In this document: piece after piece, positions 6,814 to 24,939 of the stretch
Numbering within the stretch: the stretch's first letter is position 1
How the letters are laid out: every line of letters begins with the position of its first letter
From: Escherichia phage vB_EcoS_VAH1
Direction: 5' to 3' (one strand)
Length of the DNA stretch: 64,000 nucleotides
Sequence record: MK373792.1
Made by a program: the position numbers and the translations under genes
Notes under the pieces: generated by a model
The model's database searches: none
What the model saw: the letters and a program-made list of their open reading frames with translations, nothing else
What the model was told of the DNA's origin: nothing

Positions 6814-6833
6814 GAAGATTTTTAATTTATTTA

Positions 6834-7616: not shown

Positions 7617-7645
7617 ATTATAGTTAAATTTCACTAAATAAGCAA
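7617..7645 (-). promoter_or_regulatory. T5-type early promoter (TTGCTT-N17-TATAAT)
   Basis: Consensus hexamers on the - strand. Confidence 0.55.
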
Positions 7646-7660
7646 ATGAAATTTAAATAT

Positions 7661-7680
7661 AATAGCCCCGAAGGGCTATT
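7661..7680 (-). terminator. Hairpin terminator after thyA
   Basis: Stem AATAGCCC/GGGCTATT with CGAA loop, immediately 3' of the thyA stop, AT-rich flank. Confidence 0.5.
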
Positions 7681-7684
7681 TAAG

Positions 7685-9057: not shown

Positions 9058-10199
9058 AGGAAATCTCCAAATTCATTGCCCAGATCTTTTAGAGTATCAG
9101 TAGAGGTCTCAGTTACCTGACCTACACGGTAGGCTGCACCAATCTGGATTTCTTGTGGAGCAGGCTGTAGAGAGGTAGTATCCAACCAGTTCATGATCCA
9201 CGGAATAGGGTTTTTAGTGATTACTGGTAAGTGACTAGGCCATTCTACGCCAATGTGCATAAACGCGTTGCGTCCCACAAAGTACAAGTATTCTTCTAGA
9301 AGTTCTGCATTCAAACCAATCAGACTACGACCTTTGAAGATGAAATGACCCCATTCAATTTCAGTTTTCAGAGTTTTCAGGAGCTGTGCTGGTGCTTTAG
9401 CCACTGCTTCATCTACCAGATCTTTGTCAAACTGCTGGAACATAATCTGGATGATTGTTTTAGACATCTGAGTATGTAGGGCTTCATCTTTAGCAATCAA
9501 TTGCAGATTTTTAGCAATACCTTGCAGAATATCGTTCTCTGCTAACGCAAAGGTACATGCAAAGGATGCGTAGAACTGCATTGCTTCCAGACCGTAGATT
9601 GCAAAATAAGCGTCTAATAACTTAGCCTGAGTTTCACGTTTAACTTCAGGAAACTCTGTTTCTGGGTAAGTATTATCACCACGATGATCGCGTACTGCGA
9701 TGAAATACTGACCTAACTGGTACAATTCATCGAACAGTTCAACAGAATCAGCGATACGTGCGAATGCTTCTTGGTTTTTAGTTACAGAATCAATAAATTC
9801 TGCCGGATCAGTCAGCACATTACGGATAATATTGCTATACGCACGACTATGCAGGTCTTCAAAATAGCTCCACTGCTTGAGCATACCTTCCAATTCTGGA
9901 CGACTTACAAGCGGCATAATAGCTGCTTCCGGGGCACGACTGATAAAGGAATCAGTTTGAGTCTGCCATGCTAAGTTCAGGAGTGTAATTTCCTGAATTT
10001 CACGTGGGAGATTAGGCCATTGTTTCTTATCTGCTTCCAGACTGATTTCAGTTTCAGTCCAAAATTGAGAGCGTTGCAGAAGTGCCAGACGTTCTAGTTC
10101 TGGATGTGCTACACGTACATAATCTGCGATACCGAGAGAATCTCCCAGGAAAAGGTCAGCGTTAGTATGATCCCAATTCAGGTTTAGTAAAGTAGTCAT
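9054..10199 (-). CDS. nrdB: Ribonucleotide reductase class Ia small (beta) subunit
   Basis: 381 aa with ferritin-like di-iron architecture; adjacent to nrdA. Confidence 0.85.
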   Translation of the reverse strand: MTTLLNLNWDHTNADLFLGDSLGIADYVRVAHPELERLALLQRSQFWTETEISLEADKKQWPNLPREIQEITLLNLAWQTQTDSFISRAPEAAIMPLVSRPELEGMLKQWSYFEDLHSRAYSNIIRNVLTDPAEFIDSVTKNQEAFARIADSVELFDELYQLGQYFIAVRDHRGDNTYPETEFPEVKRETQAKLLDAYFAIYGLEAMQFYASFACTFALAENDILQGIAKNLQLIAKDEALHTQMSKTIIQIMFQQFDKDLVDEAVAKAPAQLLKTLKTEIEWGHFIFKGRSLIGLNAELLEEYLYFVGRNAFMHIGVEWPSHLPVITKNPIPWIMNWLDTTSLQPAPQEIQIGAAYRVGQVTETSTDTLKDLGNEFGDFL

Positions 10200-10230
10200 T
10201 GATTTTCCTCTTTCTCACTATTTCAGGAAT

Positions 10231-10259
10231 ATTATAGCAAATCTGGTAGCGATTAGCAA
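10231..10259 (-). promoter_or_regulatory. T5-type early promoter (TTGCTA-N17-TATAAT) for nrdB
   Basis: Consensus hexamers on the - strand, about 30 nt upstream of the nrdB ATG. Confidence 0.6.
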
Positions 10260-10276
10260 GTAAAATTTCAAAGAAA

Positions 10277-10298
10277 AAGGAGACCCGAAGATCTCCTT
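10277..10298 (-). terminator. Hairpin terminator after nrdA
   Basis: Stem AAGGAGA/TCTCCTT; T-runs on both sides (GTTTTTATT on +, TTTCTTT on -). Confidence 0.5.
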
Positions 10299-10305
10299 GT
10301 TTTTA

Positions 10306-12636
10306 TTAAATAGTACAACCACCGGATGCACAACCGGCTGCTTCTTCTCCAGCACCTCCACCATTTGCGGTATTGAAGTTAGCATAATACCAAGTTTTCC
10401 ACCCATACTTAACAGCAGTCATGAAATCACGAACTACTACTGGGCCAGGAATTATTTCATTCTCAAACTTGGTGTAGTCATAGTACATATTCGTACTGAT
10501 AGACTGACTGAAGAATTTCTGCATAGTTGCTACCCACTTGATCCACTCGATACGATCTACATCATAAGCCAGTTTATAGCTCATTAACGTTTCCCAATCG
10601 GTTGCACCCGGAGCAATTGCAATTACTTTATTAACTGCACTACCCTTGATAGATACAATCTTACGAGGTGGTTCGATAGAGTTAGTAACGCCTAGCAGAA
10701 CAGAAGAGCTTTCTCCTGGCATCTGAGCAGTCAGAACAGAGTTCCGCATACCATATTTCAGAATATCTGCACGCAGAGACTCCCAATCCATTTCTAGACC
10801 TACGGATACCAGTTCATCAACAGTTTTCTTGTACGTGTCGATTACCAGAATTCCTTTAGATGGTTTAGTACGATCAAACCACTCACATGCACCCTGTTCT
10901 CTAGCTAGGCGTACAGAGGCTTTATGCAGGAAGTAGGACAGTTTTTCAGCCTCACGGTGAATCCAGTTACGGGCTTCAATACCTTCGTAAGCCAGACCTT
11001 CTGCTGCCATTGCACCTGCTGCGTTCATTAGGCCAATACCAACATTACGACGTTTCTTAGCTGTGTATTCCATAGTTGGGAACGGATAATCCTGAATTTC
11101 AATGATGGTATCAACGAATTTCAGAAGAATATAGCAAGTCTTTTCCCACTCAGCTAGAGATTCCATGCGTCCAAGTACAACACCACCTAAGTTACACAGA
11201 GATACTTCACCAATATCCTCCGGCTTCATTTGATCAAGCTGCTCTTTTGTCTTATACAGCTCTGTGATATGATGGAACGGGCGTGTAGGCTGAGTAATTT
11301 CAACACAAAGGTTTGTCATACGGATCGGATCAAGGAAATTACCATGACGATTAGATTCCCCAATGTGATGAGCATACATACGTCCTGTTTCCATTCGGAT
11401 ACGTAGCCAAGTATCTAGGATTTCTTTTGCAGAGACTTTAGGAGCTGCTGGAACTGTTTTTCCTTCGTGGTCGATCTTTGTAAGAGATGCCACACGTTTC
11501 TCCGCTGCCACATAGATTTCTTCAAATTTAGCCTCGTCATCACTATAAAACGCTTCATGAACTTCTGGAGCATAGAAGTATGACATTAGCGTAATATCTT
11601 CATTTTTCAGATAACGTTTTAACAAAAGATTGTTGAAGCTCAGAGAATAATCCATCTTATCGATTTTATTCTCATCTGTAGCACGTTGTTGCTTAACCTG
11701 CATCAATTGAATGATTTCAGGGTCAAAGTATGGATAAGACACTGTAGCAGAACCACCACGAGTTTGCTGAGTATTGGCCTTTACTGAGCGGTCAATGTGT
11801 CGATAATATGGCAGTTTTCCGGAATGCGGGAATGCCCCATTTCGCACCGGATCAGCAATTGATCTGCTTTCAAGATGATACCCGATTCCCGCTCTGGCTG
11901 CGACCATTTTGAAGACGATGTGCTCGGCGGTGTCGATTGAATCCAACGTGTCAGTGGAATCCACGAGGCAGCAACTAGCAAATCCACGGTCACTAGAGCG
12001 CAGGCCAACCAGTGGCGGCGTAGGAACGTTGATTTTGTGGAGTGACATTGCGTTGTAGAGGTCGATTGCATCTAGAATTGTCCAGTTAGGTTGAGATAGC
12101 ATCGCCATTGCCATACCCATGTAGGCAAACTGCGGAGTTTCATAAATTTCACCAGTGGCTATGTTACGCCGGGAATACTTATCAAAGAACTGCTTCAGTC
12201 CACCACTAGTAAAAAGACGGTCACGATCATGGTCGATAACCTGATTCAGAGCTTCAAATTGCTCATCGGTAATCCATGCACTCATGTCTTCCCATGCACC
12301 TACGCTAACCATATGGTCGTGGAAGAAGCGCAGAGAAGGCGGTTCGAAAGAGTCATAAAGGCGTTTACGCATTTGCGCAAGACGTAATTCCTTTGCTGGC
12401 ACATCGTATGCTGGGTTATCTTTGATAAGACTTTCAGCAGCTTTAATTAATGCGTCCATCAGAGTGTCGGAATCTACAACCCCTTTAGGTAGAGTTTTTT
12501 GAGCAGCCATAGTAATGGCTGACCAACTTACATCAACTGTTTTGCAACCATACTCTGCCCAACCATTGAGTTTTTCAGGAGCAAAGTCTTCTACAGTACC
12601 GTCACGTTTAATTACTTTTTCAATGCGATGGCTCAT
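10306..12636 (-). CDS. nrdA: Ribonucleotide reductase class Ia large (alpha) subunit
   Basis: Same frame as track ORF 10306..12741; likely start is the ATG at 12636 (MSHRIEKVIKRDGTVEDF, ATP-cone) with AAGGAAA ribosome-binding site and promoter at 12675-12703; Cys-rich C-terminal tail. Confidence 0.9.
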   Translation of the reverse strand: MSHRIEKVIKRDGTVEDFAPEKLNGWAEYGCKTVDVSWSAITMAAQKTLPKGVVDSDTLMDALIKAAESLIKDNPAYDVPAKELRLAQMRKRLYDSFEPPSLRFFHDHMVSVGAWEDMSAWITDEQFEALNQVIDHDRDRLFTSGGLKQFFDKYSRRNIATGEIYETPQFAYMGMAMAMLSQPNWTILDAIDLYNAMSLHKINVPTPPLVGLRSSDRGFASCCLVDSTDTLDSIDTAEHIVFKMVAARAGIGYHLESRSIADPVRNGAFPHSGKLPYYRHIDRSVKANTQQTRGGSATVSYPYFDPEIIQLMQVKQQRATDENKIDKMDYSLSFNNLLLKRYLKNEDITLMSYFYAPEVHEAFYSDDEAKFEEIYVAAEKRVASLTKIDHEGKTVPAAPKVSAKEILDTWLRIRMETGRMYAHHIGESNRHGNFLDPIRMTNLCVEITQPTRPFHHITELYKTKEQLDQMKPEDIGEVSLCNLGGVVLGRMESLAEWEKTCYILLKFVDTIIEIQDYPFPTMEYTAKKRRNVGIGLMNAAGAMAAEGLAYEGIEARNWIHREAEKLSYFLHKASVRLAREQGACEWFDRTKPSKGILVIDTYKKTVDELVSVGLEMDWESLRADILKYGMRNSVLTAQMPGESSSVLLGVTNSIEPPRKIVSIKGSAVNKVIAIAPGATDWETLMSYKLAYDVDRIEWIKWVATMQKFFSQSISTNMYYDYTKFENEIIPGPVVVRDFMTAVKYGWKTWYYANFNTANGGGAGEEAAGCASGGCTI

Positions 12637-12674
12637 TTGGCTTTCCTTTTTATAGTTATCAGGATTTAAGGAAT

Positions 12675-12703
12675 ATTCTACTTTATTATTGGTCATTAGG
12701 CAA
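12675..12703 (-). promoter_or_regulatory. Early promoter (TTGCCT-N17-TAGAAT) for nrdA
   Basis: Near-consensus hexamers on the - strand, about 35 nt upstream of the revised nrdA start. Confidence 0.45.
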
Positions 12704-12780
12704 ATAAAATTTTCTGATAGAAAAGGCCCGAGTATTTTCATACCCAGGCCCTGTATATTACCAGTCTAGTTTTTGGCCAC

Positions 12781-12978
12781 TTAAGTTCTCAGCAGAATAT
12801 CTATTGAGGTACTTAGTTCATTATAATTGAAGGGCCGATTTGGATTTGAGGTTACAATTTTCCACGCTAGGGTAGTCTTAGGACTTTCTTCCCCTTCCTT
12901 ACGTGTAATCATATTAGCAGCACTCAGTGAAGTACGATGTATTTTAGTTTTACGGTGTAGATGTACGACGTTTCCCAT
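12781..12978 (-). CDS. Small basic hypothetical protein (~65 aa)
   Basis: In-frame ATG at 12978 with GGAAGG ribosome-binding site directly after the phoH stop; the track ORF 12781..13047 starts at an upstream alternative codon inside phoH. Confidence 0.4.
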   Translation of the reverse strand: MGNVVHLHRKTKIHRTSLSAANMITRKEGEESPKTTLAWKIVTSNPNRPFNYNELSTSIDILLRT

Positions 12979-12979
12979 A

Positions 12980-13741
12980 TTACACCTTCCCCATGTCTTT
13001 AAAAATATCGTAGAATGCTTTAGACTCAGCAGAACGAACGTTATCAATCAATTCGATCATTGAGAATGGAGCATTTTCATATTTCTCATAAACTTCCATA
13101 AGAAGTGCTAGACCTGAGTCACCTTTAATGTCTTTCTGAGCTATATCTCCGCAGATAATTAAACGGCAGTCTTGTCCTACACGAGTTAGGAGACAAACCA
13201 TTGCCTCAACGGAAATATTCTGAGCTTCATCGACAATTACATAGGAGTTGTTGAAAGTTCTGCCACGAGCATGTTCTATAGCCAAAAATTTAATTTTCTG
13301 ACGTTCGACATATCCCTTATATGCATGATCACCGATGGCCCATTTCATACCATCAGCTATTGGCTCTAACCAAGGCTCTAGCTTTTCTGCTAGATCACCA
13401 GGAAGCATACCAAGAGACTTACCTAGAGGTTCATTAGGACGTACGAGAATTACTTGCTCAATATCTGAGTGAATGTCTACGAGTTCCTGAGCTGCAAGAA
13501 CAGACGGGATAAAGGTTTTACCAGTACCTGGCTCTCCGATACCCACAGTCACTGTGTTGTTCTTGATCATATTGATATATGATTTTTGCTCGCGGTTTTT
13601 ACCTACTAGGGATTTAGCAACTGGATTAGCGTAATCATTAGAAAAATCAGCCTGAATTACGTTATTCTCATATTTGTTGCCACGCTTTCTTGAACCATTG
13701 CGGTTCTCTCTTTTTTGACGTGCTTTTCCCATAAATAACAC
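12980..13741 (-). CDS. phoH: PhoH-like ATPase
   Basis: 253 aa; Walker A GEPGTGKT, Walker B VIVDEAQN. Confidence 0.85.
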   Translation of the reverse strand: MLFMGKARQKRENRNGSRKRGNKYENNVIQADFSNDYANPVAKSLVGKNREQKSYINMIKNNTVTVGIGEPGTGKTFIPSVLAAQELVDIHSDIEQVILVRPNEPLGKSLGMLPGDLAEKLEPWLEPIADGMKWAIGDHAYKGYVERQKIKFLAIEHARGRTFNNSYVIVDEAQNISVEAMVCLLTRVGQDCRLIICGDIAQKDIKGDSGLALLMEVYEKYENAPFSMIELIDNVRSAESKAFYDIFKDMGKV

Positions 13742-13808
13742 TCCTATAGTGTACTTCGCTTCTAACAGAGGATCAACAAAGAGATCTTGTTTATCAACTT
13801 ACAAATAT

Positions 13809-13837
13809 ATTATAACAAGGTTTACAGCAAAAAGCAA
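13809..13837 (-). promoter_or_regulatory. T5-type early promoter (TTGCTT-N17-TATAAT) for phoH
   Basis: Consensus hexamers on the - strand in an AT-rich divergent promoter region. Confidence 0.55.
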
Positions 13838-14059: not shown

Positions 14060-14731
14060 ATGGTAAGAAAGAAAATAACTACAGAAGATGTGAACTTAGC
14101 ACTTGCTCCCAGAGGAATAATTATGCTAAGCACGTATATATCAGCTAAATCCAATGCTATATTTAAGTGCTCTAATGGGCATAGTTGGGAGGCTAGAGTA
14201 GATAATGTAAAAGGTGGGAGAGGTTGCCCTTATTGTGCTAGTCGTACTTTAGATCTTAAAGAGGTAAATGAATCCTTAGCTGCTCGTGGAATAAAGATGG
14301 AAGGTAAATACATCAATTCTAAGAGTAAAATTATGTTCAGCTGTGAGAATAATCATAGGTGGGAGTCTACACTTGATAGTGTTAGAAACCATAGTTCTGG
14401 TTGTCCTATATGTTTATTAGAGAAGGATAATTATCCTACTAACGTATATATTTTAATAAGTAATGTGGGAACCAAAATAGGAGTGTCTAGCAGAACTAAA
14501 GATAGACTCAGAGATATTAAAACTTCTTCTAACATACATGATTTAAAAATATTTAAGGAATATAGCTTTTCAGATAGATCAAAAGCTATACGTATTGAAA
14601 GAGAGGTCCATTTACAGTTTAAGGAATATAATTGTCAGTACAAAGATTTTGATGGTGCTACAGAATTTTTTAATATTGAGCCAGAAGTAGTAGCAAGGTT
14701 TATTGAGGAAATAATTAATGACAGAGAATGA
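14060..14731 (+). CDS. T5orf172-domain (GIY-YIG-like) protein with two N-terminal zinc ribbons; putative homing or nicking endonuclease
   Basis: 223 aa; two repeats of C-x3-H...C-P-x-C, then a T5orf172-like C-terminal domain; sits between phoH and nrdD. Confidence 0.6.
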   Translation: MVRKKITTEDVNLALAPRGIIMLSTYISAKSNAIFKCSNGHSWEARVDNVKGGRGCPYCASRTLDLKEVNESLAARGIKMEGKYINSKSKIMFSCENNHRWESTLDSVRNHSSGCPICLLEKDNYPTNVYILISNVGTKIGVSSRTKDRLRDIKTSSNIHDLKIFKEYSFSDRSKAIRIEREVHLQFKEYNCQYKDFDGATEFFNIEPEVVARFIEEIINDRE

Positions 14732-16544
14732 ATTAATTGAGAATTGCAAAGGTCTGCTCACTCTAACTGCGGATAAGGACTTACAGCATAATAATGCTAA
14801 TAAGCCTAGTGAGATGTTCCATACTCAAAGAGACTTATTAGCTGGGGAAATTAACAAGTATTTAGTATCGCAAGAATTACCTAAACACCTGTTAGACGCA
14901 CATAATCTAGGTAAAATACACATTCATGACATGGACTACAGAGCACAAGGGTACACCAACTGTTGCTTAGTAGATCTAGGCGGTATGCTGAAAAATGGCA
15001 CTAAAATTGGTAACGCAAATATTGAAACTCCTAAATCCATAACTACTGCATGCGCGATTACTGCTCAGATTATTGCTCAAGTATCGGGTGCTCAGTATGG
15101 TGGCACTTCTATTGATCGTATCGATGAGGTTTTAGCCCCCTATGTCAGAAAGTCTTATGATAAGCACCTGGGTCGTGGTCTACGTTGGCTCAAGGATGAA
15201 AGGAAAGCTGCTGTATATGCTACTGAACTTACTGAAAAAGAGTGTTATGATGCATTCCAAGCCCTAGAGTATGAAACTAATTCATTATTTAACTCTAACG
15301 GACAGACTCCTTTTGTTACGCTTGGCTTTGGGCTAGGACAGGGGTGGGAGGAAAGGATGATTCAGAAAGCCATCCTCCAAAACCGTATTAAAGGTTTAGG
15401 TGCTGCTGAGTCAACCCCTATCTTCCCTAAACTAGTATTCTCAGTTAAAGAAGGGTTAAATAAAAATCCAGGCGATCCTAACTATGATATAAAACAGCTA
15501 GCACTTGAGTGTTCTGCTACCCGTATGTACCCGGACTATTTAAGTTACGAGAAAGTTGTAGCTGTTACTGGTGATTTTAAAGCACCTATGGGTTGTCGTA
15601 GTTTTTTATCCGCTATTCCTTCTGGGGAAACTGCCGGCCGTAATAATCTGGGTGTAGTGTCTATTAATCTACCTATGGTTGCTGCTGAGGCAGATGGGGT
15701 TTTTGAAGATTTCTGGGATATTCTGGACAAATATGTGGATGAGGCTTTTGAAGCTCATGATTTTTTCTTGGATAGACTTAAGAAAGTGAAGGCTAAACAA
15801 GCCCCTATTCTTTATATGCACGGTGGTTTTGGTGTGCGTTTAGATGGGGAAGAGTATGTATGGCCAATTTTTGAGGGTAGATCTTCTGTATCTCTTGGGT
15901 ATATTGGGGTCTATGAGATGTGCCAAATAATGTTTAGTTTACCGCAGACTCATAGGGACTGTATTGAATTTACAGAGGAAGTTCTTACTCACCTAAAAAA
16001 TCGTTGCGAAGTTAAAGCTAATGAGACTAATCTTGGGTTTAGCTTGTATGCTACTCCTAGTGAGTCTCTATGTAATCGCTTTAATAAACTACTGGAACGT
16101 AGGTTCCCTGAGTATTCTTGGCTAACAGATAAAGGCTATCTCACTAATAGTCATCATTTGGACGTAAGGGAGAAGGTAGCTCCGGATACTAAATTTGAGT
16201 ATGAAGCTCATTTCACCAAAATAGCTAATGGTGGTAATATATCGTTTGTGGAACTACCACAAATGAAAAAGTTCCATAAAGCTCTTGAATACGTAGTAGA
16301 TAAGGGATTAGAATGTAGCCATTATATTGGTGTTAATATACCAATTGATGAGTGCTTCAACTGTGGGTATATGGGTGAATCTGTTGCCTCTGAACGTGGG
16401 TTTGTATGTCCAAGTTGTGGGTCTGAAGAAATAGAGGTTACACGTAGGGTTTGCGGGTACCTGGGATCCCCGGGCAGTAGGCCTTTCAATTCTGGGAAAC
16501 AAAAAGAAGTGCTTGGTAGAGTAAAACACTTAAATCTTAAGTAA
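14718..16544 (+). CDS. nrdD: Anaerobic ribonucleoside-triphosphate reductase
   Basis: 608 aa; C-terminal glycyl-radical motif TRRVCGYLG and a Cys-rich zinc ribbon (CFNCGY...CPSCGS). Confidence 0.9.
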   Translation: MTENELIENCKGLLTLTADKDLQHNNANKPSEMFHTQRDLLAGEINKYLVSQELPKHLLDAHNLGKIHIHDMDYRAQGYTNCCLVDLGGMLKNGTKIGNANIETPKSITTACAITAQIIAQVSGAQYGGTSIDRIDEVLAPYVRKSYDKHLGRGLRWLKDERKAAVYATELTEKECYDAFQALEYETNSLFNSNGQTPFVTLGFGLGQGWEERMIQKAILQNRIKGLGAAESTPIFPKLVFSVKEGLNKNPGDPNYDIKQLALECSATRMYPDYLSYEKVVAVTGDFKAPMGCRSFLSAIPSGETAGRNNLGVVSINLPMVAAEADGVFEDFWDILDKYVDEAFEAHDFFLDRLKKVKAKQAPILYMHGGFGVRLDGEEYVWPIFEGRSSVSLGYIGVYEMCQIMFSLPQTHRDCIEFTEEVLTHLKNRCEVKANETNLGFSLYATPSESLCNRFNKLLERRFPEYSWLTDKGYLTNSHHLDVREKVAPDTKFEYEAHFTKIANGGNISFVELPQMKKFHKALEYVVDKGLECSHYIGVNIPIDECFNCGYMGESVASERGFVCPSCGSEEIEVTRRVCGYLGSPGSRPFNSGKQKEVLGRVKHLNLK

Positions 16545-16551
16545 GCTAATC

Positions 16552-16589
16552 AGCCGGGTTGCTAGTCGACCTGGCTTTTATTTTATTTG
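16552..16589 (+). terminator. Rho-independent terminator after nrdD
   Basis: Stem AGCCGGG/CCTGGCT followed by TTTTATTTTATTT; overlaps the -35 of the next promoter. Confidence 0.5.
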
Positions 16590-16615
16590 CTTTCAGCCAA
16601 AAATTTATATATAAT
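16587..16615 (+). promoter_or_regulatory. PN25-like strong early promoter (TTGCTT-N17-TATAAT, then AGATTTATAAATTTGAGAGGAG)
   Basis: Resembles the T5 N25 promoter as I recall it, including the downstream CATAAAT-like region and GAGAGGAG ribosome-binding site. Confidence 0.65.
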
Positions 16616-16643
16616 AGATTTATAAATTTGAGAGGAGAAAGCT

Positions 16644-16925
16644 ATGAGCGAATTGCTTCCTAAAGTAGATGTCTCCCATCTTGGGGAGCCTAGTGAAGAA
16701 CGTAAGGCTCTAGATTGGTTGGGCGGATTTGATTATCGTCGTGTTGTTGCAACATGGAATGATAAGAAAGTTAAGAAGTTTCGGGTACATTATGTAGGTA
16801 AAGACAAGTGGCTCTGGATTGATTATGAAGAATCGAAGGGGTCTACTAAGGCTGTGAAAATTTATCGTATGTATGGGTATTATTATGCTCACTGTGATAA
16901 GAATGAATTTACAGTACAGAACTAA
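16644..16925 (+). CDS. Hypothetical protein
   Basis: 93-aa ORF with GAGAGGAG ribosome-binding site; first gene after the PN25-like promoter. Confidence 0.55.
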   Translation: MSELLPKVDVSHLGEPSEERKALDWLGGFDYRRVVATWNDKKVKKFRVHYVGKDKWLWIDYEESKGSTKAVKIYRMYGYYYAHCDKNEFTVQN

Positions 16926-16934
16926 GGAACAAGA

Positions 16935-17138
16935 ATGAAAAACGTAAAACATCTTAAATATCGCTTAATTTACAACGGACGTATGGAAACAGAAGATCTG
17001 GCCCAGTTAGCTATTAATTCTAATGAGGTTACAGTGCGTGCGCTGGCAATTGAAAAGTTGCGTGCCTCTTATGAAAATCGTGTTATGGAACTAGAGGAGA
17101 AACTTTATGGCATTCTCGAAGCCGATGCTACCAGATAA
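16935..17138 (+). CDS. Hypothetical protein
   Basis: 67-aa ORF with AAGGAA ribosome-binding site. Confidence 0.5.
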   Translation: MKNVKHLKYRLIYNGRMETEDLAQLAINSNEVTVRALAIEKLRASYENRVMELEEKLYGILEADATR

Positions 17139-17328
17139 GGGTTTAAACGCCGCTTTGGAAAACGCATTAATGCAGCACTGGGAAACTGGCTATAAGGATG
17201 GTGTTGAATCCTGCGCTACTATGCTAGAAGTTATTGCTAATACCTTAATGGAGAAAGGCAATAAAGAATTAGCTGAGCTATTAGACAGTATTGGGCAAAA
17301 CTTCAGAGAACAGGTGAAAAATGCGTAG
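17107..17328 (+). CDS. Hypothetical protein
   Basis: 73-aa ORF with GGAG ribosome-binding site; overlaps both neighbours. Confidence 0.5.
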   Translation: MAFSKPMLPDKGLNAALENALMQHWETGYKDGVESCATMLEVIANTLMEKGNKELAELLDSIGQNFREQVKNA

Positions 17329-18136
17329 ATTAATTGTTATTAGCGGTGCAGGTTTGAGTGTTGAAAGTGGTGTACGAGCTTTTCGTACTGATACTGCTAG
17401 TGGTAAAGCATTGTGGGATGATTATGACTTAGAAGAGGTATGTAATATTCATGCCTTTCGTGGTAATTTTTATCATAAAACCCACACGTTTTACAACAAA
17501 CGTCGTGAAGAGTTAGAAACTGTTGAACCCAATCTTGCACACTTGCGTATTGGTGAATGGTATAAGAAATATCCAGGTCAAGTAGTAAACTTGACTACCA
17601 ACGTTGATGACCTTATTGAGCGTGCTGGCGTTCCACATAGTGACATTCTGCACATTCATGGGTATTTAAAAGAGGTTGTTGTAGCTGATAGCTACAATAG
17701 TAGTAATAAACGAATTATTGATGTTGGGTATAGCTCTATTGACCCAGATGATTATAAATGGGTTAAACCTAATGTAATCTTCTTCGGGGAACATGCTCCA
17801 GCATATGCAGAAATGTACAATGTTTTTGATGGTATTACCAGTCAAGATATGATCATTGTGGTTGGTTGCTCTAACCAAGTAATTAACTTCTACTGGGAAT
17901 TATTTCCTGTTCTTAATCTGACTGCTGCAAAACTTATGGTAGTTAACTACTATGATAGTGCTCTAGCGGTGGAACCAGGCTATCAAGGTATGACTCGTAG
18001 TGAGATGTACCAGCTGGAAGAACGTGGTATCCCTTACTGGAGTAAAGGTGCGATAGATGCTTTCAATGATCCTGATTTTATTGCTCGTGTAGAAGCTCAT
18101 TTAGAGGGTAGACCTTATGTGTCGGGAAATAAGTAA
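17321..18136 (+). CDS. Sir2-family (sirtuin-like) NAD-dependent protein lacking the zinc-ribbon module
   Basis: 271 aa; GAGLSVESGVRAFR (NAD-binding), TTNVDDLIERAG, catalytic HIHG, PNVIFFGE, VVGCS; no CxxC...CxxC. Confidence 0.8.
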   Translation: MRRLIVISGAGLSVESGVRAFRTDTASGKALWDDYDLEEVCNIHAFRGNFYHKTHTFYNKRREELETVEPNLAHLRIGEWYKKYPGQVVNLTTNVDDLIERAGVPHSDILHIHGYLKEVVVADSYNSSNKRIIDVGYSSIDPDDYKWVKPNVIFFGEHAPAYAEMYNVFDGITSQDMIIVVGCSNQVINFYWELFPVLNLTAAKLMVVNYYDSALAVEPGYQGMTRSEMYQLEERGIPYWSKGAIDAFNDPDFIARVEAHLEGRPYVSGNK

Positions 18137-18629
18137 TACTCCAATTATTTTTCTAGATATTGATGGGGTGCTCAATTCGAGCATCTCCCACCATCATGCG
18201 CCTGATGATGAAAAGATTTTCTTTGGAAGTGACTGGGTTTTCAAACCGCTTCTCAAGGCTTTTCAGGACTTTATTCGTCCTTCTCCAATAATGATTGTTG
18301 GGGTATCTTCATGGTTCTCTGTCAGGAATGAGATGGAGAACGTTCAGATTATGACCGGATTAGATCTTATCGATCGTTTTCTAGGTACAACGGATTTTAC
18401 TGGTGGTGGGCTATCTAGGGGTAATTCTGTTCTTCGCTTCGTTGAAAAGCATAAGCTCAAACATTGGTGTGTGCTGGATGACGCTGGTGCTATGATGTAT
18501 CAGTATCCAACGGTTATAGTCAACGGTAGAACTGGAATAAATCTTCAAGATTTAAGAGCTGTTAGCTATATGTTAGAATTTAGTCCAGATCTTGAAATGT
18601 GTAAAGCCCTACAACAATTTAAGGTATAA
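18117..18629 (+). CDS. HAD-superfamily phosphatase-like protein
   Basis: 170 aa; N-terminal FLDIDGVLN (HAD motif I, DxDG); start overlaps the Sir2 gene end. Confidence 0.55.
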   Translation: MCREISNTPIIFLDIDGVLNSSISHHHAPDDEKIFFGSDWVFKPLLKAFQDFIRPSPIMIVGVSSWFSVRNEMENVQIMTGLDLIDRFLGTTDFTGGGLSRGNSVLRFVEKHKLKHWCVLDDAGAMMYQYPTVIVNGRTGINLQDLRAVSYMLEFSPDLEMCKALQQFKV

Positions 18630-18631
18630 AT

Positions 18632-19060
18632 ATGTTCAATAATGTATTCTCTAAAGAAGCTAACCCAATATTGGTTAATTTTTGGCGTACTCTTCCAGCC
18701 AACCTGTACAATGAGGCTATTAATGCTCTGAAAATATGGTGTGAGAATAATGAAATCTCCTTTGCTTTTAAGGGTGAGATTGAAGAAGCTCCCTGTATTG
18801 GTTTAATTGTGCAGGTAGAGGATGGTCTGGAAGAGATTGTCGGCTGGAAAGAGTTGGATGAAATGGGGTTGGTTTTTGCATTAAACTATAAGCTATTTAT
18901 GCCCAATAAACACCGTATTGTTGTTAATTATAAAACCAGTGAATCTCCGGGCTTTCAAGTTAATGAACATTACGGTTGGTCTTACTCACCGGAAGAAGTA
19001 AATGATGGTATCCAGAAACTTCGTCGTTTTGGTTATCAAATTCCTGGTTTAACCGCCTAA
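18632..19060 (+). CDS. Hypothetical protein, paralog A of a tandem pair
   Basis: 142 aa; shares the motif PCIG...W.EL..MGL..ALN..LF...PGL with the next ORF. Confidence 0.6.
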   Translation: MFNNVFSKEANPILVNFWRTLPANLYNEAINALKIWCENNEISFAFKGEIEEAPCIGLIVQVEDGLEEIVGWKELDEMGLVFALNYKLFMPNKHRIVVNYKTSESPGFQVNEHYGWSYSPEEVNDGIQKLRRFGYQIPGLTA

Positions 19061-19069
19061 GGGGGCACA

Positions 19070-19462
19070 ATGGAACAAGTATATTGGCGTCAGATTGATC
19101 CTAGTTTGGTGAAGCGTGCGGAGAAGCTGCTACAACGTTGGTTGGGGGTAAGACAAGCTTCCTTCACTTTTCCGGAGCAGCAAATAGACGATCCCTGTAT
19201 TGGTGTTTTCCTATCAGGCTACGCTAGGGAATGGGAACTGGATTGGAATGAATTGTCTGCTATGGGTTTAATTGTTGCACTAAATTTCTCTTTGTTCCAT
19301 CCACGTGGTTTTGCCATATGTTGTGTGCCTGATGATGGTTGTTCGCCCCATCTTTTACAGGTGGAAGATGATATTTGGGAGTACACTCCAGATATTCTCA
19401 AAGAAGCTAAAGAACAATTAAATCGTGTTGGGATTTATGTTCCAGGCCTGAATGATGAATGA
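19070..19462 (+). CDS. Hypothetical protein, paralog B of a tandem pair
   Basis: 130 aa; AGGGGG ribosome-binding site; alignable by eye with 18632..19060. Confidence 0.6.
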   Translation: MEQVYWRQIDPSLVKRAEKLLQRWLGVRQASFTFPEQQIDDPCIGVFLSGYAREWELDWNELSAMGLIVALNFSLFHPRGFAICCVPDDGCSPHLLQVEDDIWEYTPDILKEAKEQLNRVGIYVPGLNDE

Positions 19463-19553
19463 TTTTTATTAGCTGAAGTTTGTAATCCGGGCTATTAGTG
19501 CTCGGATTATTACATAATCTTTCTAGTCGATTGACAGTCAAAATAAATTGTCG

Positions 19554-19584
19554 TTGACAATTTGGATGGATTATGTAATAATAT
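19554..19584 (+). promoter_or_regulatory. Putative promoter (TTGACA with AT-rich -10) upstream of the HNH gene
   Basis: Two TTGACA hexamers (about 19531 and 19554); the -10 is imperfect (TAATAA/TAATAT). Confidence 0.35.
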
Positions 19585-19601
19585 ATGTATTGGAGGTGAG
19601 G

Positions 19602-20054
19602 ATGTCATTCACACAGCAAGAACTTTTAGATAACTTCCGATATGAAGATGGTAAGTTATTTAGAACTACAGGAAGAAATGCAGGGAAAGAATGTTGTGTC
19701 TCTACTGGTAACGGATATTATCGTATATCTCTAGGGAATAGGACTATGCTTCGGCATAGAGCAATATTTTTAATGCATCATGGATACTTACCTGATTTAG
19801 TAGATCATGTGAATACTGTAAAAGGTGATGATCGTATTGAAAATCTTAGAGAGCAGACAGTATCCGGTAATCTAAGAAATATCAAATATAAGAAAGGAAT
19901 GCATGTTTACCCTTCTGGTAGTAATAACTGGCAAGTAGTATTTACTATTAACCGTAAACGTATAGTTAAAGGAACATATGACAACTATGAGGTTGCATGT
20001 TCTATGGCCAAGATGTTTAGAGGTCAACTATACGGTAGGGAATCAATCCAGTAA
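19602..20054 (+). CDS. HNH homing endonuclease (HNH_3/AP2-like)
   Basis: Start moved to the ATG at 19602 (GGAGGT ribosome-binding site); HNH region RHRAIFLMHHGYLPDLVDHVN. Confidence 0.8.
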   Translation: MSFTQQELLDNFRYEDGKLFRTTGRNAGKECCVSTGNGYYRISLGNRTMLRHRAIFLMHHGYLPDLVDHVNTVKGDDRIENLREQTVSGNLRNIKYKKGMHVYPSGSNNWQVVFTINRKRIVKGTYDNYEVACSMAKMFRGQLYGRESIQ

Positions 20055-20059: not shown

Positions 20060-20589
20060 CATTTGCAAGGGAGTATTATTTTATAGTATAATATTCCCAT
20101 AAATGAGAGACATTAGTAAAAATTGATTTTGCTAATTTTTCTTGTTTACAATCCGCGATACGGAACAGTTAGGCTGCCCCATTAAGGGTTGTTTTAACTG
20201 TTACGTGTTAGTTTTTAAACAAATAGTTAATAGAATACTTAGCGATCTGCGTCCCGTAGGAACCCTGGTAAGGCCTCGAAGCAACCTAGATAGAGGTGGT
20301 TGTGAAGTGAGACGGGAGGAGTGAAAAACTCCGAGACGTGATTCTGTAAGTTATATTGCATCTAGTATGAGCTAGTATATGAAGCATTAGGTGAGCAAAT
20401 CTGGCTTAGCGGCCATCCTCAAGGATTTGTGCGGTATAGCAAAGCAGCAGCGCAGCGTGAGAGTGGAAGTTGCCACCCCACTTCAGTATTTGAGATTAAT
20501 TTGTTGAGAAATTGACAGTAACAGTTGTTCTATTCTTTCTGAATAGTCCTAAAGAAAACTTATTTCATTTCCAACACAGGAGTATTGTT
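20060..20589 (+). other. ORF-free, GC-richer structured region (promoter plus long leader; candidate ncRNA, origin or intron remnant)
   Basis: About 520 bp without a credible ORF; promoter-like TTGCAA...TATAAT near 20075-20110; hairpins AACAGTTA/TAACTGTT, GGAGT-GAAAA-ACTCC, GAAGT/ACTTC; direct repeat GAGACG. Confidence 0.4.
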
Positions 20590-23379
20590 GTGTTTTCAAT
20601 CCTACAAGGTCATGCAGGATTTCATCGCGATTTAGCCACGGGCAATTGGCGAGAAGTTAAAGCAGAAGACTATCTTTTTGCTAAAAGATTTTCCTCAAAG
20701 CATCCTGAAGGTAAACCAGCTTCAATGCCCTTCAAGTTTGATGTAATTGATGAAGTTGATCCTCAAACCCTAGTAGAAATGCTTCCTCTTATGAGACGTT
20801 TAACGTCTGACCCTCATATCGTTGCGGTACGAGGTCGATGTCTTGCACCTAAAAATAATGTGCGACGTAAGAAGGGCAACTTTAATGTATCTAACCCAAG
20901 TCATATAATTGCAATGGACGTGGATGGTATTGTAGATACAGGTGGTTGTAACAAGTTTGATCTTGTTGGCATGGCTCGACACATTATTAGAATGTTAAAT
21001 AGTATTAGTGAGGATATGTTTCCTCTTGATGCAGGGTTTATCGCTCATGCATCGTCTTCGGCTGGGCTAAAACCAGGTATCCGAATGCACTTAATACTAG
21101 AATCTAATGTTAAAGTAACTCAGGGTCAAATCAAGTTCTTATTTACATCTATCAATGAAAGTAGTAGACAAAAGTATGGCTTTGATATTGCCGACTTAGC
21201 TTATTACTCTTCCGTACAGCTCCATTACTTTGCAGATCCTTTATTTATTGATGGTATAGTCGATCCGTTTAAAGCGGAGGGTGCTTCACGTCTGGTATTT
21301 GTTAAAGGCTCAAAAGTAAATTTACCTAATAATCTAGTTGACTATGAAACAACTAGAGGAGAGTTTAAAGAGGAATTCTACTCTTTACTCGATCAAATTA
21401 AAGGTAAAAAAGCTGCCTCTGATAAAGTAGAAGAAACTATCAGCGAACTAGAAGAAGCTGAGGATGGAGTGTATCTACGTATTATTCCTAAACTCTATCA
21501 CAGGGCTTTAGAGGATGGTGTTGATTTTGCATGGCTAGAAAAAGAAATCCGTCCAGCCTTATCAGAATATATTGCAACTAAAGATAATAGTCGTAATATT
21601 CAAGACTACTTTAATAACGGTCGTAAACAGGCTCTAAAAGCGTTTGTTAATAATTCTAAGCGTGAGATCCCTGAAGTATTAAAAGGTATCCCCCTTAAAA
21701 AGCTAGAAACTAATTCACTAGAGACCGACAACTTCTTGAAATTAAATACTGTACCACCAGAAGGCTATATGACTTTTGTAAAAGCAAGTCTAGGCACAGG
21801 TAAAACCACGGCGGTTGTGCGTTGGTTAGATTCAGGGGTTATTAAAGGTAATTTCTTAGCAATTACCAATACTAGAGCACTGGTATCTTCAAATGCTAAG
21901 AAATTTAGTGCAGGACAATATGATAAGTCTGTAGATATGCTTAATTTTAAGCGTGGTGCTATTGACCGTATGTCCACAACTATTCACTCTTTGCATAAAT
22001 TCAAGAGTTTTATTGGTCAAATTGATGCAATCTTTATCGATGAATGTGATGCAGTAATGAATGACCTATTATTCGCCCCGGTTGTTAAGCAACGTCGTGA
22101 ATGTATTCAGGTTCTTCGGGATATTCTTGCAACTGCAAAAATCATTATATTATCTGATGGTGATATTAGTGCAGAAACAATTGAAGCATATGGTTCTTTG
22201 ATTGAGTTTGATAAACCGGTCGCATTTTATAATCATCATCGTAAGATGTTGTCAAAAGCTCATGCTTATGAGTTCCCTGATGAATCTAGTATTTGGGTTG
22301 CACTTCAAACATCACTAGAGATGGGTGAGAAATCTATTCTAGTATCTGATTGCGGCCCAGATGAGCTGAATGAGAAAGGTATGGCATTACGTCGTAATAC
22401 GGGTGCATTAGTTAAAGAAATCCATTCAAACTCTACATCTGATGTGGATATTAGACGTATTCTGGATTACACAACTAATGAGCTAATTGATCAACAAATT
22501 GATTGCTTATTATGTAGTCCATCCGTAACGAGTGGTGTTGACTTCAACTATTTTGATAACGTATTCGTTATTACTAGAACCAGTAACCAGGCGCCGAACA
22601 TGCGTTTTCAAGCAATCAGGCGCGACCGTGGTGCTCAGAATATCTATTATTTTATTGATAAATCCACTAGTGGATTCTCCGCAGGTTCTGAGCAATATAA
22701 CATTGATGAAGGTTGGCTCGAATTAGCACAGCAGTTATATGCACGTCGTAGGGAATTAGAGTCTAGGAACTATACTAGTACCTTACGCTATTACTTGCTT
22801 GATCAGGGAGCAACTATTGATATTTTCAGTGAAAGCTGGGGAACTATTGAAGGTGCTGGTAAAGAGTACACAGAAGAGCGAATCAAAGCTATTCTGCACT
22901 CAACTCCTGATTATTGTGCTCCACGTCATGCGGATGCGTATGAAGCTAAACTACTTCTTGTTCGCTATTATCATCTTGAGTCTATTAAAGATGTAACAGT
23001 TGAGCATGTTGAACAATATATCAAAGATAAGCCGAATGATCGAGCTGCATTCTTCCATAAGATGCACGAGATGTTCTGGGAAGATATTAAGAAGTGTTCA
23101 AATGTGACCATTAAACCATTCATAGAAGCTCTGAAAGGTAAGAAGAAGGACTTCTTCCTTAAAACAGGTCAGAGTGCTAACCCAAAATATGCTAGAATGT
23201 ATCTTGGTATGATGGGTATTGGTAAAGATATGAACACGGAGAATATCGTAGACTGGTACAGAACCTATTGTAAAATCGAATGTATGCCAATTCCTTTCAA
23301 ATTTATGACAGAGGAAGAGAAGGCTATGGCAGAAGAAGCAATGTCAGAGCTAGGTGCTAGAAATGACAGTGAAGAATAA
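20590..23379 (+). CDS. Large P-loop NTPase, putative replication origin-binding or helicase-like protein
   Basis: Track ORF 20512..23379; likely start is the in-frame GTG at 20590 (GGAG 7 nt upstream); Walker A SLGTGKTT about aa 420. Confidence 0.55.
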   Translation: MFSILQGHAGFHRDLATGNWREVKAEDYLFAKRFSSKHPEGKPASMPFKFDVIDEVDPQTLVEMLPLMRRLTSDPHIVAVRGRCLAPKNNVRRKKGNFNVSNPSHIIAMDVDGIVDTGGCNKFDLVGMARHIIRMLNSISEDMFPLDAGFIAHASSSAGLKPGIRMHLILESNVKVTQGQIKFLFTSINESSRQKYGFDIADLAYYSSVQLHYFADPLFIDGIVDPFKAEGASRLVFVKGSKVNLPNNLVDYETTRGEFKEEFYSLLDQIKGKKAASDKVEETISELEEAEDGVYLRIIPKLYHRALEDGVDFAWLEKEIRPALSEYIATKDNSRNIQDYFNNGRKQALKAFVNNSKREIPEVLKGIPLKKLETNSLETDNFLKLNTVPPEGYMTFVKASLGTGKTTAVVRWLDSGVIKGNFLAITNTRALVSSNAKKFSAGQYDKSVDMLNFKRGAIDRMSTTIHSLHKFKSFIGQIDAIFIDECDAVMNDLLFAPVVKQRRECIQVLRDILATAKIIILSDGDISAETIEAYGSLIEFDKPVAFYNHHRKMLSKAHAYEFPDESSIWVALQTSLEMGEKSILVSDCGPDELNEKGMALRRNTGALVKEIHSNSTSDVDIRRILDYTTNELIDQQIDCLLCSPSVTSGVDFNYFDNVFVITRTSNQAPNMRFQAIRRDRGAQNIYYFIDKSTSGFSAGSEQYNIDEGWLELAQQLYARRRELESRNYTSTLRYYLLDQGATIDIFSESWGTIEGAGKEYTEERIKAILHSTPDYCAPRHADAYEAKLLLVRYYHLESIKDVTVEHVEQYIKDKPNDRAAFFHKMHEMFWEDIKKCSNVTIKPFIEALKGKKKDFFLKTGQSANPKYARMYLGMMGIGKDMNTENIVDWYRTYCKIECMPIPFKFMTEEEKAMAEEAMSELGARNDSEE

Positions 23380-24174: not shown

Positions 24175-24203
24175 TTGCTTTACGATGAATTTTTCTGTAT
24201 AAT
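24175..24203 (+). promoter_or_regulatory. PN25-like strong early promoter
   Basis: TTGCTTTACGATGAATTTTTCTGTATAATAGATTCATAAATTTGAGAGAGGAGTT; matches the T5 N25 promoter as I recall it. Confidence 0.7.
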
Positions 24204-24234
24204 AGATTCATAAATTTGAGAGAGGAGTTTAAAT

Positions 24235-24939
24235 ATGGCTGGTTCTCGCAGAAAGAAACATATCCATGAAATCCCGGATGAAGTCTTTAAAAAAGTTATA
24301 GAGCATCTGGAGAACGGTGGTACTAAGAAAGCAGCATGTGAAATGCTCGGCGTATCATCCAACCCAACTATGGAAAGGATGATAGAAGAGTGGCAAGACC
24401 GCCAGATCCAAGTTGCCGAGATGAAGAAAAAGAAACGTGGTACACTCATTGAAGGTATTGAGTTGGCCAACGTTATTGAACAGTATCTATCTGGTGATTC
24501 TTTTGAAGAGATTGCCGATCGTAATTACCGCTCTGTAGCAATGGTTAAATCTGTTCTGGAACGCTATGGTGCTCTGCTTCGTTTGAACGATATTGTAGAT
24601 CCATTGAATCCACCAATTATTCCTGATGATGCTGTAGCAGAAGAATTTGAGGTAGGTGAGCTTGTTTGGGTTCCTGGATACCAGTGTATCGGTGAAATCA
24701 AAAAAGCAATGGATAACCCTGTTGGTTGTTACCGTGTATGGCTTCTATCAGAAGGCAAACAACAGAATGTTCATTATATGAATTATGAATTAGCTTCTGT
24801 AAAGCATTTGGAAAAGCTAGGGGTAGACGTAAAATCTCTGGGGTATAAATGGTCCCGGGAAGAAGTTATCACACTGATTAACGAAGCTGTTAAGGCCGCC
24901 TTGAAACTTGATAAAGAAAAAGGAAAACGCCGTGAGTAG
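24235..24939 (+). CDS. Putative DNA-binding regulator with two helix-turn-helix-like segments
   Basis: 234 aa directly downstream of the PN25-like promoter; helix-turn-helix-like TKKAACEMLGVSSNPTMERMI and SFEEIADRNYRSVAMVKSVLERYG. Confidence 0.55.
   Translation: MAGSRRKKHIHEIPDEVFKKVIEHLENGGTKKAACEMLGVSSNPTMERMIEEWQDRQIQVAEMKKKKRGTLIEGIELANVIEQYLSGDSFEEIADRNYRSVAMVKSVLERYGALLRLNDIVDPLNPPIIPDDAVAEEFEVGELVWVPGYQCIGEIKKAMDNPVGCYRVWLLSEGKQQNVHYMNYELASVKHLEKLGVDVKSLGYKWSREEVITLINEAVKAALKLDKEKGKRRE

Follow-up and report, generated by a model that had tools for sequence, protein, structure and literature searches.

A Sir2-family protein and a predicted HAD phosphatase in an early accessory operon of T5-like phages, with a possible role in the healing of RNA ends

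Escherichia phage vB_EcoS_VAH1 (VAH1) carries an operon of seven open reading frames (ORFs), among them genes for a Sir2-family protein, a HAD-type phosphatase, and two DUF7415 proteins, within the 64,000-nucleotide stretch of sequence record MK373792.1 that was analyzed here (the window). An initial annotation, made from the sequence alone, had drawn attention to this operon as a possible early phage module acting on nicotinamide adenine dinucleotide (NAD) or ADP-ribose. The source phage is T5-like, with about 95% DNA identity to ECOP18 and BF23. Positions 16500-19600 matched 447 phage records by megablast, all of them T5-like, and the best matches were to Escherichia phage ECOP18 (95.4%), Salmonella phage S131 (97.1% over 94% of the query), and BF23 (94.8%). 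The counterpart in T5 is T5.100-T5.107 (AY543070, 55786-58927), located between nrdD (T5.099) and the gene for the replication origin binding protein (T5.108); T5.102 is annotated in the T5 genome as a "putative Sir2-like protein," and the annotated BF23 record has the same gene layout as T5 at this locus. The locus is certainly the T5.100-T5.107 early accessory operon of T5-like phages, which lies 3' of nrdD and has a PN25-family sigma-70 promoter. Both the gene cluster, which is annotated in Tequintavirus phages, and the association of Sir2 with HAD were already known. The features of the region are listed in Table 1.

Table 1. Genes and regulatory features of the VAH1 operon, in window coordinates
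Feature	Position	Strand	Evidence and remarks
Terminator-like hairpin with T-run, end of the nrdD transcript	16552-16576	+	10 pairs, 6 of them GC; TTTATTTTAT tail
PN25-family T5 early promoter (predicted) and short leader with the ORF1 Shine-Dalgarno sequence	16587-16643	+	Pattern match, PN25 alignment, T5/BF23 annotation
ORF1, 93 aa	16644-16925	+	phrog_7953; variable; absent from T5 and DT57C
ORF2, 67 aa	16935-17138	+	phrog_5236; ortholog of T5.101
ORF3, 73 aa	17107-17328	+	phrog_5827; poorly conserved
Sir2-family protein, 271 aa, CobB-like	17321-18136	+	PF02146, motifs, fold; ortholog of T5.102
HAD_SAK_2 phosphatase (predicted), 170 aa	18117-18629	+	Motifs I-IV intact; 20-nt overlap with the Sir2 stop; ortholog of T5.105
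DUF7415 protein a, 142 aa	18632-19060	+	PF24187; ortholog of T5.106
DUF7415 protein b, 130 aa	19070-19462	+	PF24187; ortholog of T5.107; paralog of protein a
10-bp hairpin at the site of the annotated T5/BF23 operon terminator	19483-19509	+	z = -2.4; weak U-tract

Layout and promoter of the operon

The order nrdD, terminator, promoter, operon, terminator, and origin-binding protein gene is common to VAH1, T5, BF23, and ECOP18, and the orthologs are 93-96% identical for Sir2, 98-99% for HAD, and 95-100% for the DUF7415 pair. In T5, however, T5.100 occupies the place of ORF1, and ORF3 is absent. Two extra small ORFs lie between Sir2 and HAD in T5 and one each in BF23 and ECOP18, whereas the two genes overlap directly in VAH1. 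An extra HNH endonuclease gene 3' of the operon is shared by VAH1 and ECOP18 but is not found in T5 or BF23.

Each of the seven ORFs is preceded by a Shine-Dalgarno sequence, and successive junctions measure +9, -32, -8, -20, +2, and +9 nt. The description of seven co-directional ORFs with overlapping or adjacent stops and starts given in the initial annotation was therefore accurate, all junctions being overlaps or gaps of at most 9 nt. All seven ORFs match a PHROG family (E values from 7e-31 to 1e-119), while NCBIfam supplied no specific name for any of the operon proteins and an Rfam search of the operon region matched no family. Base composition of the region is ordinary. Among the leading ORFs, ORF2 lies 5' of Sir2 in all 28 loci of the Tequintavirus/Epseptimavirus type (Sir2 identity of at least 92%, or 52-53%) and was not detected in a more divergent locus (L044). 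The identity of ORF3 is 66% to BF23 and 34% to SuperGirl.

The operon promoter has a -35 hexamer TTGCTT (16587-16592), a 17-nt spacer, and a -10 hexamer TATAAT (16610-16615) in the extended -10 ...AGATTTATAAATTTGAGAGGAG. A simple sigma-70 scan overlooks this promoter, since TTGCTT agrees with TTGACA at three of six positions, and a PN25-derived pattern was used instead. The sequence TTGCTTTCAGCCAAAAATTTATATATAATAGATT (16587-16620) fits that pattern with no mismatches, including the extended -10 element TATAATAGATT that starts at 16610. When up to three mismatches were allowed, the pattern occurred at 13 sites in the window versus 1.1 expected by chance. In the alignment with T5 PN25, the promoter of pQE-type expression vectors, the operon promoter is near-identical all the way from the -35 to the Shine-Dalgarno sequence, with the same -35 hexamer, spacer length, extended -10, and downstream ATAAATTTGAGAG block. 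Promoters annotated in T5 and BF23 at the corresponding position are nearly identical to it as well. The PN25-like, N25-type promoter proposed in the initial annotation is well matched by these results, and we retain it as a predicted promoter.

The operon promoter is not PN25 itself. We considered and rejected this identity because PN25 maps about 7 kb downstream in T5, where it drives D2 (T5.111), and has its own counterpart in the window at 24175; the operon promoter is a paralogous copy. That true PN25 ortholog, TTGCTTTACGATGAATTTTTCTGTATAATAGATT (24175-24208, plus strand), is located 5' of a D2-like gene (24235-24939), and its spacer differs from that of T5 PN25. The 13 T5-early-type promoters with a TATAATAGATT-like -10 extend over 1988-49452, with minus-strand copies at 1988-13837 and plus-strand copies from 16587 onward, and from their strands early transcription is predicted to diverge between phoH and nrdD. 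The hairpin at the end of the nrdD transcript overlaps the A/T-rich stretch 5' of the operon promoter, and T5 and BF23 have a terminator annotated at the same position. The hairpin 3' of the operon, where the U-tract is weak, was not called by the terminator scan.

The Sir2, HAD, and DUF7415 proteins

The Sir2-family protein matches Pfam SIR2 (PF02146) with an E value of 1.2e-24 and 87.7 bits against a cut-off of 24, and its residues 9-187 cover profile positions 1-178 of 180. It contains the motifs GAGLS, FR, TTNVD, HG, and FFGE. In an alignment of 26 family members, with identity down to 54%, G9, A10, G11, S13, F21, R22, N94, D96, H113, and G114 are invariant, as are Y58, R61, F154, F155, E157, G182, S184, and N209. 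The initial annotation had stated that the NAD-binding and catalytic His motifs are kept, which this invariance confirms. It had also stated that the CxxC zinc module is missing. This is correct for the Cys ligands, as there is no Cys between HG and FGE in VAH1 and there are zero or one, never four, in 24 relatives; the segment, however, keeps its length. At 36-39 aa it is as long as in CobB, and it forms three strands in the AlphaFold model (pLDDT 88.8). The zinc module is retained, and the Cys ligands alone are lost.

The closest relatives of this protein are lysine deacylases. Among PDB sequences, the nearest match is Escherichia coli CobB (7e-18), followed by Sir2Af1/2, SIRT5, and Sir2Tm, and the nearest folds in Foldseek are CobB (TM-score of 0.85 on the target), Sir2Af1, and SIRT5. 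The segment FYNKRR aligns with FYNARR of CobB and holds the class III YxxR motif, of which Y58 and R61 are the invariant residues. From work on SIRT5 and CobB, YxxR forms the pocket that recognizes acidic acyl groups in class III sirtuins. With CobB (PDB 1S5P, 6RXJ), the phage protein shares GAGxS, FR, the N/D pair, the catalytic His, FGE, the YxxR acyl-carboxylate pocket, and the length of the small domain, but the two are only about 25% identical, and the phage protein lacks the zinc cysteines and has a C-terminal extension. By sequence, the phage Sir2 proteins form a clade apart from CobB that is found on phage-sized contigs only.

These likenesses raise the possibility that the Sir2 protein is a CobB-type NAD-dependent lysine deacylase, made early, that would reset the acylation of host or phage proteins, with the HAD and DUF7415 proteins as unrelated neighbors. 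Acidic acyl groups (succinyl, malonyl) would probably be favored. CobB as the best match in both sequence and fold, the invariance of GAGxS, FR, N94/D96, H113, FFGE, and the Y58/R61 pair, and a small-domain segment of CobB length modeled as three strands all argue for this reading. Against it, all four zinc ligands are lost throughout the phage Sir2 clade, and mutating the zinc ligands is known to inactivate classical sirtuins. The cut-offs of the NCBIfam CobB models are also far from reached, with a best score of 100.3 bits (NF001753, a subfamily model) against 243 and a score of 90 against 320 for the equivalog model NF040867. We regard a deacylase as possible but doubtful.

The absence of zinc ligands is also typical of defense SIR2 domains, and it was on this ground that the initial annotation had likened the protein to Sir2 domains that serve as NAD-consuming or ADP-ribosylating effectors. 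On this view, the protein would shut off the host as a NADase or ADP-ribosyltransferase of the effector type, comparable to defense SIR2 domains or SirTM proteins, with the HAD protein as an accessory. Besides the missing ligands, the early-type promoter fits this idea. Several results speak against it, and we consider it very improbable. No PADLOC defense model matched at an E value of 0.01 or below, Pfam reported only the classical SIR2 family (PF02146), and no defense SIR2 was among the top 50 Foldseek matches of the model. The phage protein is a stand-alone protein of 271 aa with no fused or partnered sensor domain, and in this respect and in its lack of a profile match it differs from the defense effectors ThsA, DSR1/2, SIR2-HerA, and SIR2-APAZ. 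SirTM-type ADP-ribosyltransferases lack the catalytic His (PMC8556138), the counterpart of which, H113, is invariant in the phage Sir2 proteins, and the Macro domain gene that accompanies SirTM sirtuins has no equivalent here, since Pfam found no Macro domain in any of the seven ORFs. The likeness to effectors did not hold up, and the Sir2 protein should not be assumed to be a defense-type NADase because it is closest to deacylases, keeps an invariant catalytic His, and matches no defense model.

The gene 3' of Sir2 encodes a full-length member of HAD_SAK_2 (PF18143; 1.9e-20, 74.1 bits against a cut-off of 27.5), a family described as "HAD domain in Swiss Army Knife RNA repair proteins," for which the function is itself a prediction. 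Residues D14, D16, S64/S65, R101, and D121/D122 are invariant in five diverse members from T5-like, Aeromonas, Acinetobacter, and Proteus phages. All four HAD motifs are present, in agreement with the DxDG HAD-type phosphatase recognized earlier, and phosphatase activity is predicted from them. Searches of PDB by sequence and by profile returned no meaningful solved relative of the HAD protein. The label "Sir2," which is attached to this protein in phrog_18062 and in many RefSeq records ("Sir2 x2"), was rejected as an annotation artifact derived from deletion remnants (described below): phrog_18062 matches the C terminus of HAD (residues 79-170), and its label has been propagated onto intact RefSeq HAD genes.

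The last two genes encode members of DUF7415 (PF24187), which they match at 114 and 105 bits (cut-off, 27). Over 124 aa the two proteins share 31% identity (E = 4e-20), and the initial description of two paralogous small proteins thus extends to a shared family. Protein b gave a confident AlphaFold model for which no solved structural relative was found. DUF7415 is a small family; a profile built from eight members found 69 clusters among 5.8 billion proteins, almost all of them on phage contigs. Members with a single domain, 72-98 residues long, correspond to the C-terminal half of the window proteins. In some public records, DUF7415 proteins go by the names "exonuclease (ACLAME 70)," "tail tube protein," or "RNA-binding protein"; we found no support for any of the three. 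In KP17, a Klebsiella Jiaodavirus, a single-domain DUF7415 gene lies between nrdD and nrdG (L006, 3980-4213). The single-domain proteins of KP17 and of Aeromonas phage PX29 are 77-79 aa long, and the domain keeps company with nrdD, RnlA, or Sir2.

Variation of the operon and its gene families in other phages

To survey the locus, 59 Sir2 loci were fetched from IMG/VR. HAD lies 3' of Sir2 in 29 T5-like loci, and the two genes are adjacent in every HAD-bearing locus (29/29). The distance between them varies: it is -20 nt in 4 of the 29, about 140-200 nt in 14, about 330-380 nt in 9, and about 500 nt in 1, and the loci other than the four with the 20-nt overlap carry one or two extra small ORFs at the junction. 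HAD is missing from three Klebsiella-type T5-like loci and from phage SEL21, in which nrdD is followed by a small ORF, Sir2, and two DUF7415 genes. The makeup of the operon is not fixed across phages. Three points of the initial annotation are qualified by these comparisons. The "tightly coupled operon" is real in the junctions of VAH1 but is not conserved as a unit, as both the leading ORFs and the Sir2/HAD junction vary. Translational coupling of Sir2 to HAD fits the overlap in VAH1, but few loci share that overlap and the Klebsiella T5-like phages have no HAD to couple. The gene order in relatives, which had been suggested as a check, likewise gave a divided answer, with constant adjacency where HAD is present and its absence from the Klebsiella group. 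For a deacylase that works alone, the Klebsiella loci are a favorable observation, whereas the constant adjacency and the joint loss described next are unfavorable.

Two phages carry natural deletions in the operon. In DT57C (L008, 3854-4126), a 90-residue remnant joins Sir2 residues ~169-215 to HAD residues 130-170. In SHSML-45 (L013, 3522-3818), residues 1-25 of ORF3 are joined to HAD residues 66-170, and there is no Sir2. Both deletions remove Sir2 plus the catalytic N terminus of HAD, their breakpoints differ, and the chimeric remnants are labeled "Sir2" in databases. Sir2 and HAD were lost together twice, independently. Because these are natural, viable phages, Sir2 and HAD must be dispensable for lytic growth. 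The DUF7415 pair is intact in both and is therefore retained independently of Sir2 and HAD; the action of this pair and of the small leading ORFs seems not to depend on the two enzymes.

The three families are widespread, with 993 phage records for the Sir2 clade, 474 for HAD, and 715 for DUF7415, and their neighbors differ among phage groups. In rV5, the gene order is RNA ligase 1 (RnlA), cREC ("cyclic-phosphate processing receiver"), and Sir2, with a polynucleotide-kinase-like AAA_33 protein and a calcineurin-like phosphoesterase encoded on the divergent strand and a tRNA array nearby. A homolog of RNA ligase 1 (Rnl1) lies within 2.2 kb of Sir2 in 12 of the 59 IMG/VR loci. The T4-like Aeromonas phage PX29 (L007, 2661-5228) has the order td, HAD_SAK_2, DUF4326, DenA, RnlA, and single-domain DUF7415, and a distant viral contig (L069) has NrdD, NrdG, Sir2, and HAD_SAK_2 within 8 kb. 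Serratia jumbo phage BF encodes, in order, NadR-like, Nampt, Acb1-like 2H, a zinc-binding protein, Sir2, Nudix-cREC, and PIN-PhoH. Eight rV5-type loci have a Prs-like/Nampt-like gene pair 4.5-7.9 kb from Sir2, and three further IMG/VR Sir2 loci have NAD-salvage genes only. In Acinetobacter phage ABPH49 (L010, 3980-7201), a Prs-like gene precedes a Nampt-like gene, and its start lies within a 4-nt overlap with the HAD_SAK_2 gene. Two themes recur in these neighborhoods, RNA-end repair and NAD/ADP-ribose metabolism, often in one accessory region. The recurrent neighbors are phosphoesterases, nucleotide kinases, RNA ligase, and NAD-salvage enzymes, and none of them is directed at proteins, which counts against a deacylase.

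The second theme suggests counter-defense through NAD or ADP-ribose metabolites. The Sir2 protein would convert or exchange an NAD-derived molecule, the HAD protein would dephosphorylate an ADP-ribose phosphate such as ADP-ribose 1''-phosphate (ADPR-1''-P), and the pair would feed NAD reconstitution or destroy immune signals. The available description of NARP1 defines this NAD reconstitution pathway by a Prs-like/Nampt-like gene pair (bioRxiv 10.1101/2024.02.11.579819). The Macro-domain phosphatase Adpp, which acts on ADPR-1''-P, extends NARP1 against aRES defense (bioRxiv 10.64898/2026.01.28.702374), so a phage phosphatase acting on this compound is a proven form of counter-defense, and HAD_SAK_2 would be the functional analog of the Adpp of NARP1-AP. 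By analogy, the HAD_SAK_2 of ABPH49 may be the HAD counterpart of the Macro-domain phosphatase in NARP1-AP operons. The NARP1-type pair next to that gene, the position of Sir2 in phage BF between the NadR-like, Nampt, and Acb1-like 2H genes and Nudix-cREC, and the eight rV5-type and three further loci with NAD-salvage genes are all in keeping with this reading, as is the NAD-restoring NARP3 pathway carried by Bas30, a T5-like phage of the BASEL collection (PMC13464706). We nonetheless consider it unlikely. A sirtuin consumes NAD+ and would aggravate its depletion, the phosphatase proven to act in NARP1-AP has a Macro domain rather than a HAD domain, and the associations come from few lineages and lie in large accessory regions crowded with unrelated auxiliary genes. 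The loci with T5-like gene order had no NARP gene, and in particular no Prs-like or Nampt-like gene, at a distance of 10 kb or less from Sir2, and a scan of nine larger ORFs from the first 14.7 kb of the window found no NARP3 genes (PnuC-like, NadR-like).

Genes flanking the VAH1 operon show further variation. An HNH_3 homing-endonuclease gene (19554-20054, plus strand; likely ATG at 19602, 150 aa) separates the operon from the origin-binding protein gene as an insertion with its own near-consensus promoter (TTGACA, 17 nt, TG-AATAAT). Between phoH and nrdD lies a 223-aa endonuclease-like ORF (14060-14731, plus strand) that carries DUF4379 zinc-finger and T5orf172/MUG113 domains, runs into the start of nrdD, and probably represents a second mobile endonuclease insertion. 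The product of nrdD (14718-16544) is 99% identical to NrdD of Shigella phage SHSML-45 and only 60% identical to that of ECOP18, the phage with the closest Sir2 operon; the genome is mosaic at the nrdD/operon junction. The origin-binding protein ORF (20512-23379, plus strand) was called from TTG 20512 with 955 aa, and its true start is probably about 26 codons downstream because the T5 and BF23 genes encode about 929 aa. Other RNA-directed early genes lie upstream, unlinked to the operon and all on the minus strand: an Rv2179c-like 3'-5' exoribonuclease (4872-5573), RNase H (6834-7322), and tRNA-Arg(TCT) (1105-1179).

Proposed function and comparison with known systems

A distinct phage sirtuin clade with three types of gene neighborhood was described by Iyer, Burroughs, Anantharaman and Aravind (Viruses 2022; PMC9503650, section 3.7.3), who propose in that section that phage sirtuins remove 2'-phosphates from RNA, as KptA does. 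Following this line, we tentatively read the T5-like pair as two enzymes for the NAD-dependent removal of phosphates from damaged RNA ends. The substrate is inferred, and the reading, although ranked first here, falls short of being probable. The CobB-derived sirtuin would bind NAD+ and transfer ADP-ribose to an anionic acceptor, releasing nicotinamide; the acceptor would be a 2'-phosphate at a broken RNA end, as for KptA/Tpt1. The invariant His would then activate the ribose 2''-OH, and ADP-ribose cyclic phosphate or phosphate would be freed. HAD_SAK_2 would strip a terminal phosphate that remains, whether on the RNA end or on the ADP-ribose phosphate by-product. Sealing would need a host ligase because T5-like phages carry no Rnl1.

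Several observations argue for RNA-end healing. Judged from conserved residues, both the sirtuin site, with H113 as putative general base and Y58/R61 as putative anion pocket, and the HAD site appear intact, and the invariance of H113 fits a two-step KptA-like reaction. By profile, the HAD protein belongs to a family that was delineated on "Swiss-army-knife" proteins of RNA repair. The Sir2 and HAD genes lie side by side, are jointly lost in two deletions, and occur together on the distant contig L069. This reading is ranked first because it explains the HAD family, the RnlA, cREC, and kinase partners of the Sir2 clade, and the gene order in PX29, and RNA-end repair is at least as well supported as NAD counter-defense.

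Other observations weigh against RNA-end healing. We know of no sirtuin that has been shown to act on an RNA 2'-phosphate, and the host ligase RtcB needs no 2'-phosphate removal. The nearest sequence and fold relatives of Sir2 are true lysine deacylases, the Klebsiella T5-like phages keep Sir2 without any HAD, and gene context does not single out RNA repair, since the same Sir2 and HAD families adjoin NAD-salvage genes. In the 32 loci with T5-like gene order, no match to RnlA, cREC, or Acb1-type 2H lay 10 kb or less from Sir2; Rnl2-type ligases were not searched. A tblastn search with RnlA matched only 14 Salmonella phage records, versus about 273 Salmonella T5-like records, and T5-like phages appear from these searches to have no Rnl1 homolog. 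A literature search on T5.102/T5.105 and on phage sirtuin experiments found no functional study.

The view in the initial annotation of an early module that manipulates NAD or ADP-ribose can be kept in part. A NAD-linked early accessory module, with relatives that adjoin NAD-salvage genes, remains a fitting description, while the argument from an effector-like Sir2 was wrong. A reading that spans RNA-end healing and counter-defense takes the T5 Sir2 as the first sirtuin with a natural phosphate acceptor, which would be an RNA 2'-phosphate or an ADP-ribose- or NAD-derived phosphate in place of acyl-lysine. It takes HAD_SAK_2 as a second, non-Macro class of phage ADP-ribose-phosphate phosphatase that in Acinetobacter phages also adjoins NARP1-type operons, the pair as a new NAD-centered counter-defense or repair module, and DUF7415 as a phage-only family with a new fold. 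We consider this reading rather unlikely. If the phage sirtuin clade does act on phosphorylated RNA ends or ADP-ribose phosphates, sirtuin chemistry would extend beyond acyl-lysine, and the NAD-centered arms race between phages and bacteria (NARP1-3, aRES/Adpp) would gain a new component. The operon genes occur in hundreds of sequenced T5-like, rV5-like, KVP40-like, and jumbo phages. The comparisons also yield a cleaner list of targets, Sir2 plus HAD, separable from the DUF7415 pair, and DT57C and SHSML-45 can serve as natural knock-out phages for phenotype work.

The closest described system is type 3 of PMC9503650, "sirtuin + Swiss-army-knife HAD," typified there by the T5-like phage SP15, which comprises the same gene pair in the same phage group; the passages of that paper on type 3 do not take in the DUF7415 pair, the variable junction, the natural deletions, the YxxR pocket, or the NARP-type neighbors found here. 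In chemistry, the proposed steps resemble the KptA/Tpt1 pathway with its cyclic phosphodiesterase and Poa1p/Adpp, in that a transfer of ADP-ribose from NAD+ to a phosphate, as proposed in the section of PMC9503650 cited above, would be followed by a phosphatase. KptA, however, has an ADP-ribosyltransferase fold and is not a sirtuin, Poa1p and Adpp are Macro domains and not HADs, and no ligase or cyclic phosphodiesterase accompanies the T5 genes. NARP1 and NARP1-AP differ in their Adps (Prs-like) and Namat (Nampt-like) genes, which are not found near the T5-like Sir2, and again in having a Macro phosphatase in place of a HAD. Self-contained phage RNA repair has an RNA ligase and a cyclic phosphodiesterase (2H or cREC); no RnlA, cREC, or Acb1-type 2H match lies within 10 kb in the T5-like loci, whereas rV5-type relatives possess such partners. 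The RnlA-cREC-Sir2 cluster of rV5-type phages, compared here along with the Pnkp/Rnl RNA repair of T4, places a member of the same Sir2 clade (56% identity) among an RNA ligase 1, a polynucleotide-kinase-like P-loop protein, and phosphoesterases. The T5-like operon lacks these partners, and HAD is the only enzymatic partner of Sir2 in it.

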